DNA of 4,726 nucleotides, from IMG/VR virus record IMGVR_UViG_2648501784_000015, positions 1-4,726 of that record; one strand, written 5' to 3'. This DNA comes from a virus. Its lineage: Duplodnaviria > Heunggongvirae > Uroviricota > Caudoviricetes. A program made the position numbers and the translations under genes. Shown piece by piece: positions 938 to 4,726 of this stretch. The stretch's first letter is position 1, and the number at the start of each line of letters is the position of its first letter. The notes under the pieces were generated by a model. It ran no database searches, was not told the origin of the DNA, and saw only the letters and a list, made by a program, of their open reading frames with translations.

Positions 938-1080
938 TGAACGAGAAACATAAAATGTTATAAATATCAATATATTACATTTTATTTCGTATAAAAAACA
1001 GACTAGATAATACTGTAAAACACAACATATGCAGTCACTATGAATCAACTACTTAGATGGTATTAGTGACCTGTAACAGA
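938..1080 (-). promoter_or_regulatory. Lambda-like attP P arm (Int arm-type sites P1/P2, with IHF/Xis/Fis site region) retained in attR
   Basis: The reverse complement reads TCTGTTACAGGTCACTAATACCATCTAAGTAGTTGATTCATAGTGACTGCATATG...CGTTCAGC, nearly identical to the lambda P arm as I recall it. Arm-type Int consensus copies sit at about 1032-1042 (CAGTCACTATG) and 1062-1074 (ATTAGTGACCTGT). The central Xis/Fis stretch (about 975-1010) appears to differ from lambda at several positions. Confidence 0.8.
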
Positions 1081-1082
1081 GC

Positions 1083-1123
1083 ATTAGCGCAAGGTGATTT
1101 TTGTCTTCTTGCGCTAATTTTTT
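1083..1123 (+). terminator. Rho-independent terminator hairpin plus T-tract; positionally equivalent to the lambda tI/sib retroregulator
   Basis: ATTAGCGCAAG (1083-1093) pairs perfectly with CTTGCGCTAAT (1107-1117) around a 13-nt loop, followed by TTTTTT at 1118-1123. It sits about 150-190 bp from the core on the P-arm side, where lambda tI/sib lies. Orientation matches transcripts that would come from int through att in the phage. Confidence 0.6.
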
Positions 1124-1434
1124 GTCGTAAAATCGGTAACGTCTGGAAATCATTCAATATTCGCACTATCGGAAGTTCACCAGCCAACCGCAGCACGTTA
1201 TTGCATACAACGTGCTGCGGCATAAAACCAATGATTATTCCTTCCCGCACATGACATACCGCGACTTTATTTATCCCCAGCAGGAAATTTTTCATACAAC
1301 TTCGACCCACCAACATCACAGGTAATTGTTCCGCCTGTGTATTCTCGCGCCAACATCTACCACAATTTGTTTTCATAGGATTGTAGTCACTCTTCTGGTT
1401 GTTTCACATAATAACTTGTATACTTCAGATAGTA

Positions 1435-1464
1435 TTCATAACCTCAAACTATTTAATGTATAAA
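1435..1464 (+). promoter_or_regulatory. Putative sigma70 promoter for the cargo gene (-35 TTCATA about 1435-1440; TG-TATAAA about 1457-1464)
   Basis: AT-rich 115-bp leader upstream of the 1495 start codon. Hexamers chosen by eye, 18-bp spacing, TG immediately upstream of the -10. Not validated and alternatives exist. Confidence 0.25.
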
Positions 1465-1494
1465 TTAGATCTGAAAGTTTAGGAAAGATTTTCT

Positions 1495-2214
1495 ATGTTG
1501 ATCGTTTCTGTACTACGCTGCGGCAAGGATTTTACGCCGAAACATGCACAATGGCTTCATAAACAATTTGGTTCAATGCCCTCAATCTGCTTGACTGATG
1601 CTGGAAGTATTGATGGTGTGAATACTGCACCTTTGTTATTTGATTGGCCTGGTTGGTGGTCAAAAATGGAGTTATTTAACCCAAACCATCCAGTAATCGG
1701 GAATCATGACATTTTATATTTTGACATAGATGTTGTCATTACTGGAAAATTGGATATTTTTACAAAAGCTAAAAATTTCACCATGCTCAGGGAGTTTAAT
1801 CATCATGACCGTGTTAACTCCTCAATTATGATGATTCCCGTTTCTGCAAAGACAAAAATATGGGAGGAATTTACTGCCAATCCTGAACAAATAATGCAAG
1901 AATGCAAAACTGAAGATAAATGGGGTGATCAAGGTTTTATCGGTAGTGTTACTAAGCCAGACTTATGGCAGGACATTATTCCAGATGCAATTAAAAGTTA
2001 TAAATGCGATATAGCAACAAAATCAATGATTGGATACAATCCAGACCTGGCATCAAAATCAGCAACTGGGAAAGTACCTGACAGTGTTTCAGTTGTGTGT
2101 TTTCACGGTAGTCCACGCCCCTGGCGCACTGGTTTTAACTGGGTTCCATCTTTTTCTTTAAAAGATACGCTTTATGGCAAAGTAAAAAATCTCAAATTAA
2201 AGGTTAAAGGTTAA
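1495..2214 (+). CDS. Prophage b-region cargo (moron) protein, 239 aa; putative GT-A fold, GT8/glycogenin-like nucleotide-sugar glycosyltransferase
   Basis: Clean ORF with SD AGGAAA at 1481-1486, 8 nt before the ATG, and TAA at 2212-2214. Markedly AT-rich compared with both flanks. The motif order and spacing resemble GT8 hallmarks as I recall them from glycogenin/LgtC: hydrophobic strand plus DxD (ILYFDIDVVITGKLDIF, D77-D79, nt 1723-1731); NSS about 30 aa later (nt 1816-1824); DQG (aa 145-147, nt 1927-1935); and C-terminal CFHGSPRPW (nt 2104-2124), matching H-x-x-G-x-x-K/R-P-W. No obvious signal peptide or TM segment. The family call is inference; the CDS itself is well supported. Confidence 0.8.
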   Translation: MLIVSVLRCGKDFTPKHAQWLHKQFGSMPSICLTDAGSIDGVNTAPLLFDWPGWWSKMELFNPNHPVIGNHDILYFDIDVVITGKLDIFTKAKNFTMLREFNHHDRVNSSIMMIPVSAKTKIWEEFTANPEQIMQECKTEDKWGDQGFIGSVTKPDLWQDIIPDAIKSYKCDIATKSMIGYNPDLASKSATGKVPDSVSVVCFHGSPRPWRTGFNWVPSFSLKDTLYGKVKNLKLKVKG

Positions 2215-2220
2215 AATCAT

Positions 2221-2243
2221 AACCACTCGCATAGCGGGTGGTT
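2221..2243. terminator. Hairpin between the convergent cargo gene and tfa (10-bp stem with one G.U, 3-4-nt loop); possible bidirectional terminator
   Basis: AACCACTCGC (2221-2230) pairs with GCGGGTGGTT (2234-2243). It lies 7 nt after the cargo gene stop and about 70 nt after the tfa stop. Flanks are only moderately U-rich on either strand. Confidence 0.35.
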
Positions 2244-2313
2244 ATCTGTCTCAGCCACGATACGCCTGAAACTGGCTTTAAGTCAGCAATAATAAAAGGA
2301 GTAAATCCTTCCG

Positions 2314-2883
2314 TTATTGTGGTTGCACAGGCCAAACTGGCTCAAGAATATCAACACGGTTCAGCAATACCCGATACTTCTTCCAGGCTGTCAGCAACGA
2401 TATTTCTTCCTCCGTTGCAATCTCCAGATCTACCGCATCCTGAAGTGGCGAAATATGCTCACTGGCTACCTGCATCAGGCTGTTTTTTGTTTCTTCCGCC
2501 TCCCGGATCCGGAACAGTTTTTCTGCTTCTGCATCTTTCACCCAGGCTGTGCCGTTCCACTTCTGAAACTCCCCTTCCGGCGATAACCAGGTAACATTTT
2601 CCGGTAACGGACCGAGTTCAGAAATAAATAAAGCATCACCGGAAGTTACGTCATATACAGTTTTACCTCGGTGGTCTTCAACAATATTCCAAGATTTATT
2701 CTCACTGTTAAAAACAGCCACAAATCCAGCCTCCACATCTGGTGGTGCTATATCTGTAGTATTAGCTGGTAGACCTGTATACGGTGGGATATATGCGTCA
2801 CTTTCCCCAATAAATTCATTGGTTCCATCAAGTAAATTAAATACGCGGATAGTTTGTGCTTCTGCACTCATTCTGAAAGTCAT
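2314..2883 (-). CDS. tfa: Tail fibre assembly protein (lambda Tfa / T4 gp38-like chaperone)
   Basis: 189-aa ORF ([60 protein letters not shown]...[42 protein letters not shown]...) closely matches lambda Tfa as I recall it. It lies immediately downstream of stf with a TAATG stop/start overlap, and has a GAGG Shine-Dalgarno about 8 nt upstream. Confidence 0.92.
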
Positions 2884-4726
2884 TATGCAAGCCTCACAAT
2901 ATAGTTAAATGCGATGTTTTTGACGGTGTTTTCGGTATTACCAGTAGCATTTACGGTAATGGAATGCCCGTGTGAGCCAATGGCAACAGTGTGTGAATGT
3001 GCACCAATACCAACAGTATGGTTATGTGCTCCAATGTCGACTGTATGTGCATGATTGCCTGATGAACTAGTAGTCGTAGCACCTTTATCACTTCGCGGAA
3101 CACCATAATTTGCACCGCCTGATTGCACGCTCACAGCAAAACCGACGGTATGTGTATGATTGCCTGAAGTATTGGTTGATTTTGTGCCGTGGTTAAACGT
3201 ACTGACTGTCTTCGTGCCGTAATCAAATGAACTGGTCGTTTTCGTCCCTAAATCCGTATTTGACGCACTGGCGCTGTGAGTATGTGATTTAATCCCGTCC
3301 TGTTCCTGTGATAATACAGCACGCCCACTGGCGGGTTTGCCCTTGATTGTCCAGCCGCGCATATCCGGAATAACACCAGAAGGATAGGCTATAGCCAGTT
3401 TCGGATATGCAGATTTGTCAAAAGTCTGCCCCTGCATCAGGGCATAGCCAGACGGAACGGTATCTGATGGCCACGGGATTGGTGCGCCGACTGGATAAAA
3501 CTCTGCAGGAGGATGAGCCGAGGTGTAAAGCTGCGCCCACGGCGACCAGTTTGCGTCGGTCGTATCCCGTCGTGAACGAATAAATGCCGGAGCATGAGCA
3601 CCGCTTGTACCACTCCAGCCGATGAGTAACTCACCTTCGCCAACGGCTGTCATCCCTTTCAGGTGAATGATATTTCCATACGCTGTTGGATATCCGTTGT
3701 TATACACCTCGTATAACTCAAGACCTGCTGCCCCCTGCGTATTGTCTGTCAGCGCGGCTACCCGACCTTTTGAAGCCAGATTAACTGATGATACTGCTGT
3801 TCCACCTGACGGTAGCGCCCCGATCTCTGATGCCGTTGGCTTATTTCTGGAGTTATAGTCCCTTCGCCAACCAGGTGAATAATCTGTTCCGTGATTAATA
3901 TAGGTAAACTGGGCGTTGGTTGTTCCGCCACCGCTGGATGTGGTCGGAGTGGTAATGCGGATCGTCATCGCTGACTTTATCCCCATTACTTCAATGACAG
4001 CTCCGGCGAGATGAATATTACCGCAGCCAGTATCAGTAATGATTTTATTATTGCCATAAGACCAGGAACCCTTGCACATCCAGTATGGATGGTTAAATGC
4101 TCCCTGAGAATCCAGCCACTCGATAAACTGTGCAGTCGTCCAGTTTCCTGTTGTTGTGCTTACTGACCCACCGAAGGCACGGCAGGCACCAATATTTTTC
4201 GTAAAGGTGTCATTGCCAGGGATATCCGCACCGTTCTGATCTTTCTGCAGACGTTTCTCAGCATTGTCATTGGCTGCTTTTACTGCCTTCGGCGTTGCCG
4301 CCAGCGTTTCAGATGTGCTGTTGGTCGCACTGCTGAGCTGTACTATCCCCTTTTTCGTCGTGCTCGCATCCTCAAGCGCCACGGCGGATGCAATATCCTC
4401 TGCCCGTTTTGCAGCTGTCTCGGCGCGCGTTGCCGCGGATTCAGCCGCATTTTTGCTCTGAGCTGCCTCCGTCGCACTTCCTGCCGTCTCTGTCGCCTTC
4501 GTGGATGCCGTTGACGCACTCTCTGCCGCCGCTGACGCCTGTCTGGTCGCCTCATCTTTTGAATCAGACGCAGATGATGCCGATGATGCCGCCGAACTGG
4601 CTGATGATGCGGCTGCCGTCTTTGAGGATTCTGCGCTGGTTTCCGACGCTTTCGCGTTCGTTTCGGATGTCTTCGCTGCGGATGCAGACCTCGCTGCTGC
4701 GCTGGCCTGTTCAGCGGCTTCGCCAG
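2883..4726 (-). CDS. stf: Side tail fibre protein (lambda Stf / T4 gp37-like), C-terminal 613 codons; 5' end lies outside the window
   Basis: The minus-strand frame is open from the window edge (4726) to TAA at 2885-2883. The track start at 4382 is an internal GTG (my manual translation upstream gives ...[29 protein letters not shown]... with no stop). It contains the conserved [24 protein letters not shown] motif, an Ala/Ser/Thr-rich N-proximal region, and C-terminal His-x-His repeats like the T4 gp37 / lambda Stf distal tip. Confidence 0.92.
2958..3056 (-). repeat. Tandem in-frame 27-nt (9-aa) coding repeats encoding the G-A/S-H-x-H-T/S-V-x-I units of the tail-fibre tip
   Basis: The protein reads [36 protein letters not shown]. 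The corresponding DNA shows repeated (A)TGTGCACCAAT / ATGTGCTCCAAT-like units. Further HxH copies lie upstream, at about 3150-3160 and 3280-3290. Confidence 0.7.

Follow-up and report, generated by a model that had tools for sequence, protein, structure and literature searches.

The window analyzed here, a stretch of 4,726 nucleotides of Caudoviricetes DNA, contains an attR junction, a single accessory gene and the tail fibre genes of a lambda-like prophage at the attλ site of E. coli. The original prediction had described the accessory gene as an AT-rich moron for a compact GT8-like glycosyltransferase (GT), and had offered LPS core, another surface receptor, a protein or a nucleic acid as its target. 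The window contains the following features.

923 to 937, no strand: attλ 15-bp common core, TTAGTATAAAAAAGC, at the attR junction, between host ybhB/bioA on its left and prophage DNA on its right
1083 to 1124, plus strand: sib/tI-type hairpin with a U-run, lambda att-int region (fold -19.3 kcal/mol, z=-5.4)
1384 to 1412, plus strand: weak, uncertain sigma-70-like promoter candidate TAGTCA-17-CATAAT (consensus scan, 9/12)
1481 to 1484, plus strand: Shine-Dalgarno-like AGGA, read from the sequence
1495 to 2214, plus strand: GT gene, ATG-to-TAA ORF of 239 aa, putatively GT8-like (GT-A fold)
1663 to 1665, plus strand: predicted catalytic/ligand residue K57
1723 to 1731, plus strand: predicted catalytic/ligand residues D77-x-D79
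1927 to 1932, plus strand: predicted catalytic/ligand residues D145-Q146
2104 to 2106, plus strand: predicted catalytic/ligand residue H204
2116 to 2124, plus strand: predicted catalytic/ligand residues R208-P-W
2219 to 2245, no single strand: 12-bp hairpin, terminator-like on both strands, 5 nt past the stop codon and between the convergent GT gene and tfa
2314 to 2883, minus strand: tfa, tail fibre assembly gene and convergent neighbour (Pfam Caudo_TAP, E=1.1e-37)
2883 to 4726, minus strand: stf, side tail fibre gene, C-terminal part with His-rich HxH repeats (ORF list; tail fibre protein in phage Chlobot)

The gene had been placed correctly between the tail-fibre genes and attR, as the P arm and the sib/tI hairpin lie beyond the attλ core. 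The core in the window is the reverse complement of GCTTTTTTATACTAA, the established attλ core sequence, and the same layout is also annotated in E. coli genomes. In HK97 the DNA homologous to the hairpin is annotated as 'sib retroregulation site'. This hairpin should shield the GT gene, in the prophage against transcripts entering on the host ybhB side and in the excised phage against those coming from int. At the other end of the window the listed stf ORF begins at 4382, and its reading frame probably runs on upstream. A 107-aa ORF between att and the GT gene (1053-1376, minus strand) was rejected as a partner, since its matches cover att/sib DNA only.

The claimed 239-aa ORF is a real gene. 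No ORF of at least 239 codons arose in 20,000 shuffles of the local sequence, so a chance reading frame is not expected, and 390 homologues of the protein were found, with 18 invariant alignment columns. The gene is indeed more AT-rich than its flanks and convergent to tfa. The GC content was 0.376 for the ORF (GC3 0.31) and 0.26 for the 100 nt upstream, compared to 0.53-0.54 for bioA/ybhB, 0.446 for tfa and 0.495 for stf.

The gene also has its own Shine-Dalgarno-like sequence as proposed. It lies 10 nt before the ATG, a plausible but long spacing, and when five related cassettes were aligned with the window, four of them had a GGA/GGG core here too. Promoter-like sites near the gene were not enriched in the consensus scan (8 versus 5.6±2.1 in shuffles). 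The CATAAT of the promoter candidate and the next ~80 nt are common to the window and to the copy of the cassette in a P2-like prophage. In the excised phage the gene could be read from pL through int, like the ea genes of the lambda b-region. The hairpin behind the gene folds with -17.2 kcal/mol on the plus strand (z=-5.1) and -13.9 kcal/mol on the minus strand (z=-5.15), and none of 200 shuffles was equally stable. A terminator scan reports it as a minus-strand terminator. On the plus strand the U-tract following it is poor and the efficiency of termination is therefore uncertain.

The slot occupied by the GT gene varies: in sister attλ prophages it is either empty or filled by a gene for a 181-aa acetyltransferase, and the arrangement of the window is present in only 4 of 5,426 complete E. 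coli genomes. The gene itself is rare in the species (24 of the 5,426 genomes at a nucleotide identity of at least 70%). Close relatives are also found elsewhere, in P2-like prophages, either convergent to tfa or between ogr and a replication gene; these positions resemble known P2 cargo sites. Positions 1393-2900 of the window are 85.7% identical to a segment of a P2-like prophage. Judged from these sequences, tfa and the GT gene travel together between lambdoid and P2-like prophages.

The ORF remained intact in a prophage remnant with decayed tail genes. An identical locus is present in the free phage Chlobot, which also encodes a porin, Lom and SieB. The identical protein was found on 499 contigs, and E. 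coli, E. marmotae, E. albertii and E. fergusonii are all represented in its 90% cluster. The description as a moron is thus borne out by the distinct base composition, a terminator on each side, the variable slot and the lack of dependence on neighbouring genes. The GT gene can be regarded as a self-standing piece of cargo that moves horizontally, with a terminator of its own, a candidate promoter and a foreign base composition.

All motifs named for the protein were found in place: I73-F89 (ILYFDIDVVITGKLDIF, containing D77/D79), N108-S110, D145-Q146-G147 and C202-W210 (CFHGSPRPW, containing H204). The residues K57, D77, D79, D145, Q146 and H204 were invariant in an alignment of 65 sequences. 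That the protein looks cytoplasmic is in agreement with our analysis as well, since no transmembrane segment was found and the highest 19-residue Kyte-Doolittle mean was 0.98.

The assignment to GT8 held in part. The motif pattern aligns with glycogenin, Skp1 α-GalT and WaaJ in profile and structure comparisons, but there was no match to curated GT8. The Pfam profile Glyco_transf_8 (PF01501) did not match the protein, nor did any Pfam family at E<=10. Scans against NCBIfam and PADLOC gave no match, and no precomputed GT8 domain was present among the 120 homologues listed. Without a Pfam or NCBIfam match the protein is therefore placed in a separate, undescribed GT8-like family and not in GT8 as curated.

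A single-sequence search of PDB sequences returned noise only and a family profile was needed. This profile matched GT8 enzymes, the nearest solved ones being Skp1 α-GalT and glycogenin, which are both protein-modifying; LgtC was absent from the matches at E<=10. In the profile alignment the DxD (D77-I-D79) falls on DAD, GDQGF on GDQGLL and FHGxPRPW on HFLGxxKPW. FHGSPRPW in the protein aligns with HFLGQTKPW of glycogenin and HYTGATKPW of WaaJ, and E. coli WaaJ matched the family in hhalign with E=2.3e-5 and an unchanged motif register. The AF2 model of the protein (pLDDT 96.8, pTM 0.93) has a GT-A fold with GT8 enzymes as nearest structural neighbours, as had been expected. The best functional label came from PHROG 1962 'glycosyltransferase' (E=4e-76), with residues 1-225 aligned to profile positions 1-226 of 230. 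The enzyme class is thus well supported, and the product is predicted to be a cytoplasmic GT-A glycosyltransferase, soluble or peripheral, that is metal-dependent and retaining.

Compared to the CAZy/Pfam GT8 set (glycogenin, the Skp1 α-galactosyltransferase Gat1, LgtC, WaaJ/WaaO/WaaR/WaaT/WaaI and GlyE), several differences were seen. Identity to solved GT8 enzymes was 11-16%, the spacing from the His to the basic residue is 2 residues shorter, and the family has its own invariant motif PGWWSKxELF. Furthermore, the protein is ~100 aa shorter than the Waa enzymes of GT8 and lacks their C-terminal domain.

The family is large, with ~5,400 uncharacterised clusters at 50% identity, most of them from phages. 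PHROG 1962 matches it, and PmgQ of phage P1 (36% identity over 92% of the query) and HdmD of P7 belong to it. P1 pmgQ is non-essential and dispensable for plaque formation (PMC10695390), and it shares with the gene of the window the character of a non-essential accessory phage gene. Whereas the GT gene of the window stands alone at the prophage end, pmgQ belongs to an operon under a C1 operator with two WaaZ/MptE-like genes (pmgO and pmgP) and the phosphatase gene ppp.

A WaaZ/MptE-like neighbour or fusion was present in 47 of 100 family groups. In phages this is the partner most often seen beside or fused to the family, P1 PmgO/PmgP being examples, and it is homologous to WaaZ (hhalign probability 98.2%, E=5e-14). 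A search of the complete genome of Chlobot revealed no such partner. Many distant members of the family are located in phage head-gene modules together with methyltransferases. In the literature searched we found no functional study of PmgQ, pmgO/pmgP, PHROG 1962, a prophage GT8 in connection with LPS, or a P2-hotspot glycosyltransferase.

Relatives with 37-49% identity were also located in chromosomal waa (LPS-core) clusters of Pectobacterium, Klebsiella/Raoultella, Morganella and Halomonas, where they adjoin WaaL, a WaaZ-like homologue of Kdo transferases, or both. In a NJ tree, which is rough and without support values, the closest non-prophage relative was from Pectobacterium (WP_409309911, Pectobacterium sp. 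B1J-3; 49% identity). The Pectobacterium operon is orientated on one strand and consists of waaG, waaP, a PEtN-transferase-like gene, a waaO-like gene, a WaaZ-like gene, the family member and a GT25 gene. Relatives with 37-42% identity lie directly upstream of waaL; those of Klebsiella aerogenes/Raoultella and Morganella morganii are 213-214 aa in size. In Klebsiella/Raoultella the gene is found inside hldD-waaF-waaC...waaQ clusters, in Morganella it adjoins WaaL, a WaaZ-like gene and coaD, and in Halomonas a WaaZ-like gene.

The relatives of Pectobacterium, Klebsiella aerogenes/Raoultella and Morganella morganii keep the invariant residues of the GT protein, and they are annotated just as 'hypothetical protein' or 'glycosyltransferase family protein'. 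The presence of family members in waa clusters and the homology of the phage partner to WaaZ are new here. Unlike its waa-cluster homologues, which are chromosomal members of core operons accompanied by a WaaZ-like gene, WaaL or both, the gene of the window is prophage-borne and lies outside any waa core-biosynthesis cluster. The homologues would thus support that it works like a core GT, but not that it is a member of the Waa enzymes.

In the reading that we favour on these data, the GT gene may well encode a retaining hexosyltransferase which acts in the cytoplasm on the LPS core and thereby masks phage receptors, although we would stop a little short of calling this probable. Comparative genomics would favour the LPS core, the first of the targets originally offered, over protein or nucleic-acid targets, because the nearest non-phage relatives lie inside LPS-core gene clusters; the frequent pairing with a WaaZ homologue points the same way. 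Like the chromosomal Waa enzymes, the enzyme would work at the inner face of the cytoplasmic membrane, where it would use a UDP-hexose donor to extend the growing core-lipid A of LPS by a sugar. The altered core would then be shown on the cell surface. In the lysogen or late in infection, a core epitope serving other phages as receptor or co-receptor could thereby be masked or removed. The receptor of the phage's own side tail fibre, whose genes the GT gene accompanies, could plausibly be masked too. The outcome would be superinfection exclusion at the receptor level or lysogenic conversion.

Such a conversion function is supported by the variable slot beside the receptor-binding stf/tfa and the co-transfer with tfa, by the acetyltransferase in the slot of sister prophages, by the porin, Lom and SieB genes of the free phage with the identical locus, and by the intact ORF in a remnant with decayed tail genes. 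Several findings count against LPS core modification. The nearest solved relatives, Skp1 α-GalT and glycogenin, modify proteins, and the gene is rare in E. coli. The promoter candidate is weak, the C1 operator of the homologous P1 operon leads one to expect repression in lysogens, and the placement of distant members in head-gene modules fits virion glycosylation better than LPS modification. As the prophage of the window has no WaaZ-like partner, the two-enzyme logic seen elsewhere is not directly transferable to it.

Phage genes with a function comparable to the proposed one are well known. GtrABC of the P22/SfV type and phage O-acetyltransferases are encoded by accessory genes between the tail or receptor-binding genes and att, a position shared by the gene of the window. 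Through their action the LPS of the lysogen is altered, and related phages are no longer adsorbed. The Gtr systems consist of three membrane proteins, which modify the O-antigen at the periplasmic face via Und-P-glucose. In contrast, the window encodes one soluble GT-A enzyme without a transmembrane segment, whose putative target is the core at the cytoplasmic face. A GtrABC-type mechanism was rejected for this locus, since a single gene is found between sib and tfa, gtrA/B/C and transmembrane segments are lacking, and the fold is GT8-like and not GT2/GT-C.

A closer parallel in logic is the inner core of E. coli K-12, where the KdoIII transferase WaaZ adds a third Kdo and its product is further glycosylated with rhamnose by the partner transferase WaaS (PMC4651636). 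Similarly, the GT family is a recurrent partner of WaaZ-like genes in bacteria and phages, but the prophage of the window has no WaaZ-like gene of its own, and homology of the family to WaaS was rejected (hhalign probability 0.6%).

It is possible, although doubtful, that phages widely carry a toolkit for remodelling of the LPS core which was copied from or exchanged with bacterial waa clusters. In this toolkit a GT8-like hexosyltransferase would as a rule be accompanied by one or two WaaZ-like enzymes of the Kdo-transferase type, and in some cases be fused to such an enzyme. The P1 genes pmgO-pmgP-(ppp)-pmgQ would represent such a module, acting on P1's own receptor molecule. The gene of the window would be a stripped-down, single-enzyme form for lysogenic conversion that travels with a tail-fibre cassette, and its product would mask the LPS receptor of the fibre from the cytoplasmic side, mechanistically unlike the periplasmic Gtr systems.

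The acceptor could also be another envelope glycan assembled on undecaprenyl-PP at the cytoplasmic face (O-antigen unit, enterobacterial common antigen or colanic acid), with the same outcome of serotype or receptor conversion. A cytoplasmic GT, the cargo slot beside tail-fibre genes and the acetyltransferase alternative in sister prophages fit this equally well, some relatives adjoin UDP-glucose dehydrogenase or polysaccharide-type genes, and WaaL as a neighbour would suit any glycan that is ligated. We consider it unlikely, since the chromosomal relatives lie in waa (core) clusters beside waaG/P/O/Z/Q/C/F and hldD, and no Wzx, Wzy or Wzz was found among their annotated neighbours. Glycosylation of virion proteins, either Stf/Tfa or the capsid, would alter particle stability, adsorption or immune recognition, and mycobacteriophage glycosyltransferases do act on virion proteins. 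In favour of it, 27 of 100 family groups are found in the midst of genes for the portal, the capsid and the head-tail connector, 21 of 100 have SAM methyltransferase neighbours, and one has a radical-SAM and GT2 cluster between capsid and connector genes. The name 'putative morphogenetic' of the P1 gene, a late promoter placed upstream of that region, the adjoining tfa/stf, the top sequence matches to protein-modifying GT8s and the occurrence of MptE-like domains in Maf flagellin glycosyltransferases point the same way. Nevertheless, this seems quite unlikely to us: the GT gene is located on the strand opposite to the late tail operon with a hairpin terminator between them, it is intact where tail genes have decayed, its nearest relatives reside in non-phage LPS-core operons, and P1 pmgQ is dispensable for plaque formation (PMC10695390).

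The enzyme might instead modify a cytoplasmic macromolecule, a protein or nucleic acid of the host or an invading phage, as an effector of defence, counter-defence or host takeover. P2-type cargo slots often hold anti-phage genes, and the closest solved relatives act on cytoplasmic proteins. GT8-like phage enzymes have moreover been shown to extend glycans on 5hmC DNA (bioRxiv 10.1101/2023.12.21.572611). Against this, no PADLOC model matched, no partner gene is present and the chromosomal relatives in LPS clusters argue for a glycolipid acceptor, so that we regard such a target as decidedly unlikely. For Chlobot, glycosylation of DNA via 5hmC glycans was rejected, as no 5hmC pathway was seen among the annotated genes. 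The only methyltransferase of Chlobot is a Dam-type N6-adenine enzyme (Pfam Dam, E=6e-65), and based on the annotation and this one Pfam check no C5-methyltransferase, 5mYOX, ThyS-like or other hydroxymethylase was present among its annotated genes, many of which are only 'hypothetical'. With no 5hmC/5hmU pathway annotated, no 5hmC substrate is therefore expected. Finally, the rarity in E. coli and the weak promoter candidate would fit a selfish or neutral passenger or an inactive remnant. This is very improbable, as all catalytic-type residues are invariant and intact, the identical protein is present on 499 contigs with a 90% cluster spanning four Escherichia species, and the ORF was kept intact in a decayed prophage.

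With the O-antigen (Gtr systems and O-acetylases) and outer-membrane proteins as targets, exclusion at the receptor level by prophages is well documented. Many coliphages, including P1 and the T3/T7 and T4-like groups, use the LPS core as receptor or co-receptor. A soluble phage enzyme that remodels the LPS core on its own was not described in the limited literature searched. If modification of the LPS core is true, a function would be assigned to a family that has thousands of members but lacks a Pfam model, including four long-unexplained 'pmg' genes of P1. The 'hypothetical' genes that are conserved in waa clusters of Klebsiella aerogenes, Raoultella, Morganella and Pectobacterium would receive a function as well, and it would be shown that genes pass between the cargo of phages and the core-biosynthesis loci of bacteria. 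Furthermore, an extra predictor of phage host range would be gained, which is relevant to phage therapy and typing. If it fails, the family would still represent a well-defined, structurally confident and easily assayable orphan glycosyltransferase.

The last residues of the GT protein (222-239) form a strongly basic C-terminal tail, which P1 PmgQ lacks. As a classic amphipathic membrane helix this tail was weakly supported, with a helical hydrophobic moment of 0.25 and alternating K and hydrophobic residues. Its basic nature is compatible with binding to an anionic membrane surface.

The window covers the right end of a lambda-like prophage that is integrated at the E. coli attλ site. The following features were located:

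13-297, host gene bioA
356-832, host gene ybhB
839-865, host terminator hairpin
923-937, 15-bp att core, with the lambda P arm next to it
1083-1124, sib/tI hairpin with a U-run
1495-2214, + strand, the 239-aa ORF studied here (transferase gene)
2219-2245, hairpin
2314-2883, - strand, tfa (Pfam Caudo_TAP, E=1e-37)
2883 onward, - strand, stf, the side tail fibre gene

Annotated E. coli chromosomes show this arrangement between ybhB and ybhC. It was also present in the free lambdoid phage Chlobot, where int and xis are restored beside att and where a protein 100% identical to the window gene product was labelled 'glycosyltransferase' by the depositors.

The transferase gene had been predicted to be an AT-rich unit of its own. 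Its GC content was 0.376 (GC3 0.31) versus 0.53 in the host genes, 0.446 in tfa and 0.495 in stf, and the proposed AT-rich leader was confirmed, with 26% GC in the 100 nt upstream. An open frame of this length occurred in none of 20,000 shuffles of the local sequence. A word-indexed search detected 390 homologues of the protein; in an exhaustive search of 1.84 billion representatives 5,430 clusters at 50% identity matched the family profile, 1,393 of them with E<=1e-30. The hairpin 5 nt past the stop codon (-17.2 kcal/mol, z=-5.1) folds on both strands; together with the sib/tI terminator on the upstream side, it delimits the gene as a separate unit. The best candidate promoter (1384-1412) scored 9/12, and such sites were not more frequent than in shuffled sequence.

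No match to the protein was found in Pfam, NCBIfam and PADLOC. PHROG 1962, annotated 'glycosyltransferase', matched it over the full length (E=4e-76, PHROGs), and PmgQ of phage P1 and HdmD of P7 shared 36% identity with it (tblastn). A profile built from 65 diverse homologues matched the solved GT8 enzymes Skp1 α-galactosyltransferase (E=5e-7), glycogenin-1 (E=1.3e-5) and GlyE (E=0.008). In these alignments D77-x-D79 fell on the DxD motif, GDQGF on GDQGLL and FHGxPRPW on HFLGQTKPW; E. coli WaaJ was aligned in the same register by hhalign (E=2.3e-5). The motifs quoted in the original prediction were all located in the ORF at the residues assigned to them, and 18 columns were invariant across the family (P52, W54, W55, K57, E59, F61, D77, D79, G144, D145, Q146, S168, K170, F203, H204, G205, P207 and P209). 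A hydrophobic segment long enough for a membrane span was absent from the protein, in line with the cytoplasmic location suggested earlier.

The proposed GT8-like GT-A enzyme was thus borne out in fold and active-site pattern, which the protein has in common with GT8, whereas it failed the curated GT8 HMM test. It is therefore filed here as a member of a separate GT8-like family, PHROG 1962/PmgQ, which has no Pfam entry. With high confidence, sequence and structural modelling predict an active GT-A glycosyltransferase with a GT8-like architecture that depends on metal and is cytoplasmic or peripheral; by GT8 precedent, a retaining mechanism and a UDP-hexose donor would be expected. The C-terminal tail (residues 222-239, nt 2158-2211) is strongly basic, with a net charge of +5 and alternating Lys and hydrophobic residues. 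The prophage clade linked to tail fibres shares a tail of this character with the LPS-cluster members of Pectobacterium and Halomonas; P1 PmgQ and the waaL-linked clade lack it. Binding to the membrane surface is one possible role.

To survey the family, 160 loci were gathered from species-representative genomes and IMG/VR, neighbours were called within five ORFs and clustered, and the enzyme was grouped at 85% identity, resulting in 100 groups. In 47 groups a protein of about 200-300 aa, with a weak match to Pfam MptE-like, was either encoded nearby or fused to the enzyme. The enzyme lay among phage portal, capsid or connector genes in 27 groups, next to SAM methyltransferases in 21, next to tfa or tail fibre genes in 6 and in LPS-type chromosomal loci in 9. 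Fusions involved MptE-like, methyltransferase and sugar-O-methyltransferase domains.

Among the LPS-type loci, Pectobacterium sp. B1J-3 carried a homologue (L014:6001-6729) with 49% identity to the window gene protein in a one-strand operon. This operon starts with waaG (62% identical to K-12), waaP (68%) and a sulfatase-family PEtN-transferase-like gene, and continues with a waaO-like GT8, a WaaZ-like gene, the family member and a GT25 LPS gene, followed by an unrelated ABC transporter. Klebsiella sp., Raoultella lignicola and Raoultella scottii carried a homologue (39-42%) directly upstream of waaL (Pfam Wzy_C), flanked by waaQ/GT4/GT4/GT2 on one side and by WaaZ-like, waaC, waaF and hldD genes on the other. 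The 213-aa waaL-linked protein occurs widely in K. aerogenes, R. planticola, R. terrigena and K. oxytoca, always under the annotation 'hypothetical'. Morganella morganii (L072:6001-6642) had WaaL and a WaaZ-like gene after the homologue, with coaD close by, and Rosenbergiella, Erwinia and Martelella had WaaL after it. Halomonas cupida carried GT4s, an HldD-like epimerase and UDP-glucose dehydrogenase, then the homologue and a WaaZ-like gene. The members in the waa clusters of K. aerogenes/Raoultella (L028:6001-6633), Pectobacterium and Morganella are conserved yet unannotated and appear to be uncharacterised core glycosyltransferases. A rough neighbour-joining tree placed the chromosomal genes, those of the P1 type and the prophage clade linked to tail fibres, which includes the window gene, in one enterobacterial group, with the Pectobacterium waa gene as the closest outgroup to the prophage clade.

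The WaaZ-like genes of the LPS clusters matched Pfam MptE-like weakly (E about 4e-6 to 7e-6), as did P1 PmgO and PmgP. Profile-profile alignment of the WaaZ-like set, K-12 WaaZ included, with the phage partner family gave a probability of 98.2% (E=4.8e-14), and members of either set were recovered by the HMM of the other. In E. coli K-12 the third Kdo of the inner core requires the transferase WaaZ, whose product is decorated afterwards by a second transferase, WaaS (PMC4651636). Homology of our family to WaaS was tested and none was found, yet the family occupies the same position as partner of WaaZ.

The receptor of phage P1 is the LPS core. In P1 the order pmgN-pmgO-pmgP-ppp-pmgQ (L003:5144-7702) was found downstream of a C1 operator and late promoter. 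PmgO and PmgP are WaaZ homologues by profile-profile comparison and share a single C1-operator-controlled operon with the GT8-like PmgQ. From sequence, pmgO-pmgP-ppp-pmgQ is a possible LPS-core remodelling module. Our literature search found no study on the function of pmgO, pmgP or pmgQ; all three were non-essential by CRISPRi (PMC10695390).

The window gene itself stands alone; no WaaZ/MptE-like ORF was present anywhere in the Chlobot genome. It is also rare: its locus was found in 4 and any copy (>=70% nucleotide identity) in 24 of 5,426 complete E. coli genomes. The identical protein occurred in 499 contigs, and its 90% cluster has members from E. coli, E. marmotae, E. albertii and E. fergusonii. 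A P2-like prophage segment was 85.7% identical to window 1393-2900, comprising upstream leader, gene and tfa, with the gene again convergent to tfa. Relatives at 70-72% nucleotide identity lay between ogr and the replication gene in P2-family prophages or in a P2/186-like remnant, and in another P2-like prophage a 56%-identical relative lay at the end, after the genes for the tail fibre and tfa; these sites are similar to the variable cargo positions that P2-like phages are known to have. In sister attλ prophages (e.g. E. coli 210205630, L172:3037-3582) the slot at 1495-2214 was occupied by a 181-aa 'serine acetyltransferase' of the hexapeptide type, oriented alike and convergent to tfa, which suggests that glycan-modifying cargo genes are swapped in this slot. 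Chlobot also encodes Lom, SieB and a porin (Pfam Porin_1, E=2e-156); phages of this type thus invest in cell-surface alteration. The porin gene (L004:2616-3773), a full-length Gram-negative porin of the Lc/NmpC conversion type, is located between the genes for the Q antiterminator and those for lysis. The attλ prophage of E. coli GDSC2227PM (L002:6001-9000) was reduced to a few kb, with an internal stop in tfa and only fragments of stf, J and other tail genes; its transferase ORF was intact and 99.6% identical.

Most probably, the enzyme would transfer a hexose onto nascent core-lipid A on the cytoplasmic side. The core shown at the cell surface would be altered and adsorption blocked for phages that read the altered part, plausibly including those with the same side-fibre specificity, as the gene is linked to stf/tfa. 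In the lysogen it may be expressed from a weak promoter of its own; in the excised genome pL transcripts may read through int and sib, since the gene is oriented like the ea genes of the lambda b-region. The enzyme class rests on sequence and predicted structure and we infer the remainder; the reading as a whole is put forward tentatively, at somewhat less than an even chance. Another Und-PP-linked envelope glycan as acceptor, leading to the same biology on a different substrate, is rather unlikely.

Glycosylation of a virion protein would fit the many distant family members in head modules with methyltransferases and the closest solved GT8s, which modify proteins. However, the strand and terminator of the window gene, its retention in a tail-less remnant and the relatives in LPS clusters argue against it, and we regard it as unlikely. 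A cytoplasmic protein or nucleic acid as target, in defence or counter-defence, appears improbable: extension of glycans on 5hmC DNA is a known activity of GT8-like phage enzymes, but the annotation of this phage type holds only a Dam-type methyltransferase and lacks a hydroxymethyl-pyrimidine pathway, and no PADLOC model matched. That the gene is a functionless passenger is very improbable.

The generic label 'glycosyltransferase' already exists in PHROGs, RefSeq (P1 pmgQ) and the Chlobot record, so the enzyme class is no discovery. To our knowledge, three points were previously undescribed: that the family has members within waa clusters, that these enzymes repeatedly occur together with WaaZ homologues both in bacteria and in phages (P1 pmgO/pmgP/pmgQ among them), and the resulting hypothesis that phages remodel the LPS core at the cytoplasmic face. 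Known prophage LPS conversion by GtrABC and O-acetylases targets the O-antigen and uses another mechanism than the cytoplasmic-face core change proposed here. Our reading, drawn wholly from comparative inference and clearly testable, would extend to a classical phage and the core loci of several pathogens.

In a metagenomic siphophage (L007:4338-7459) a distant member lay between the major capsid and head-tail connector genes, accompanied by a radical-SAM enzyme, a GT2-like protein and small unknown ORFs. SAM methyltransferases were neighbours of, or fused to, many further distant members. Such head-module loci could serve virion glycosylation or another late-expressed glycan pathway.

A 107-aa ORF (1053-1376, - strand) overlaps the att P arm and the sib/tI hairpin. 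It is a 'hypothetical protein' in Chlobot, and part of it is labelled a 'capsid/nucleocapsid protein' pseudogene in E. coli genomes by RefSeq. It is probably not a gene, because its tblastn matches in other lambdoid phages were limited to att/sib regulatory DNA, e.g. the 'sib retroregulation site' of HK97. Rfam IS009 (RF02111) matched 2342-2540 (- strand, 205 bits, full length) on the tfa strand and wholly within the tfa CDS, so that this 'sRNA' model falls on conserved coding DNA for tail-fibre assembly. The C-terminal part of Stf (2883-3120, - strand) contains repeated His-x-His motifs, which resemble the metal-binding repeats of T4 gp37-type fibre tips.
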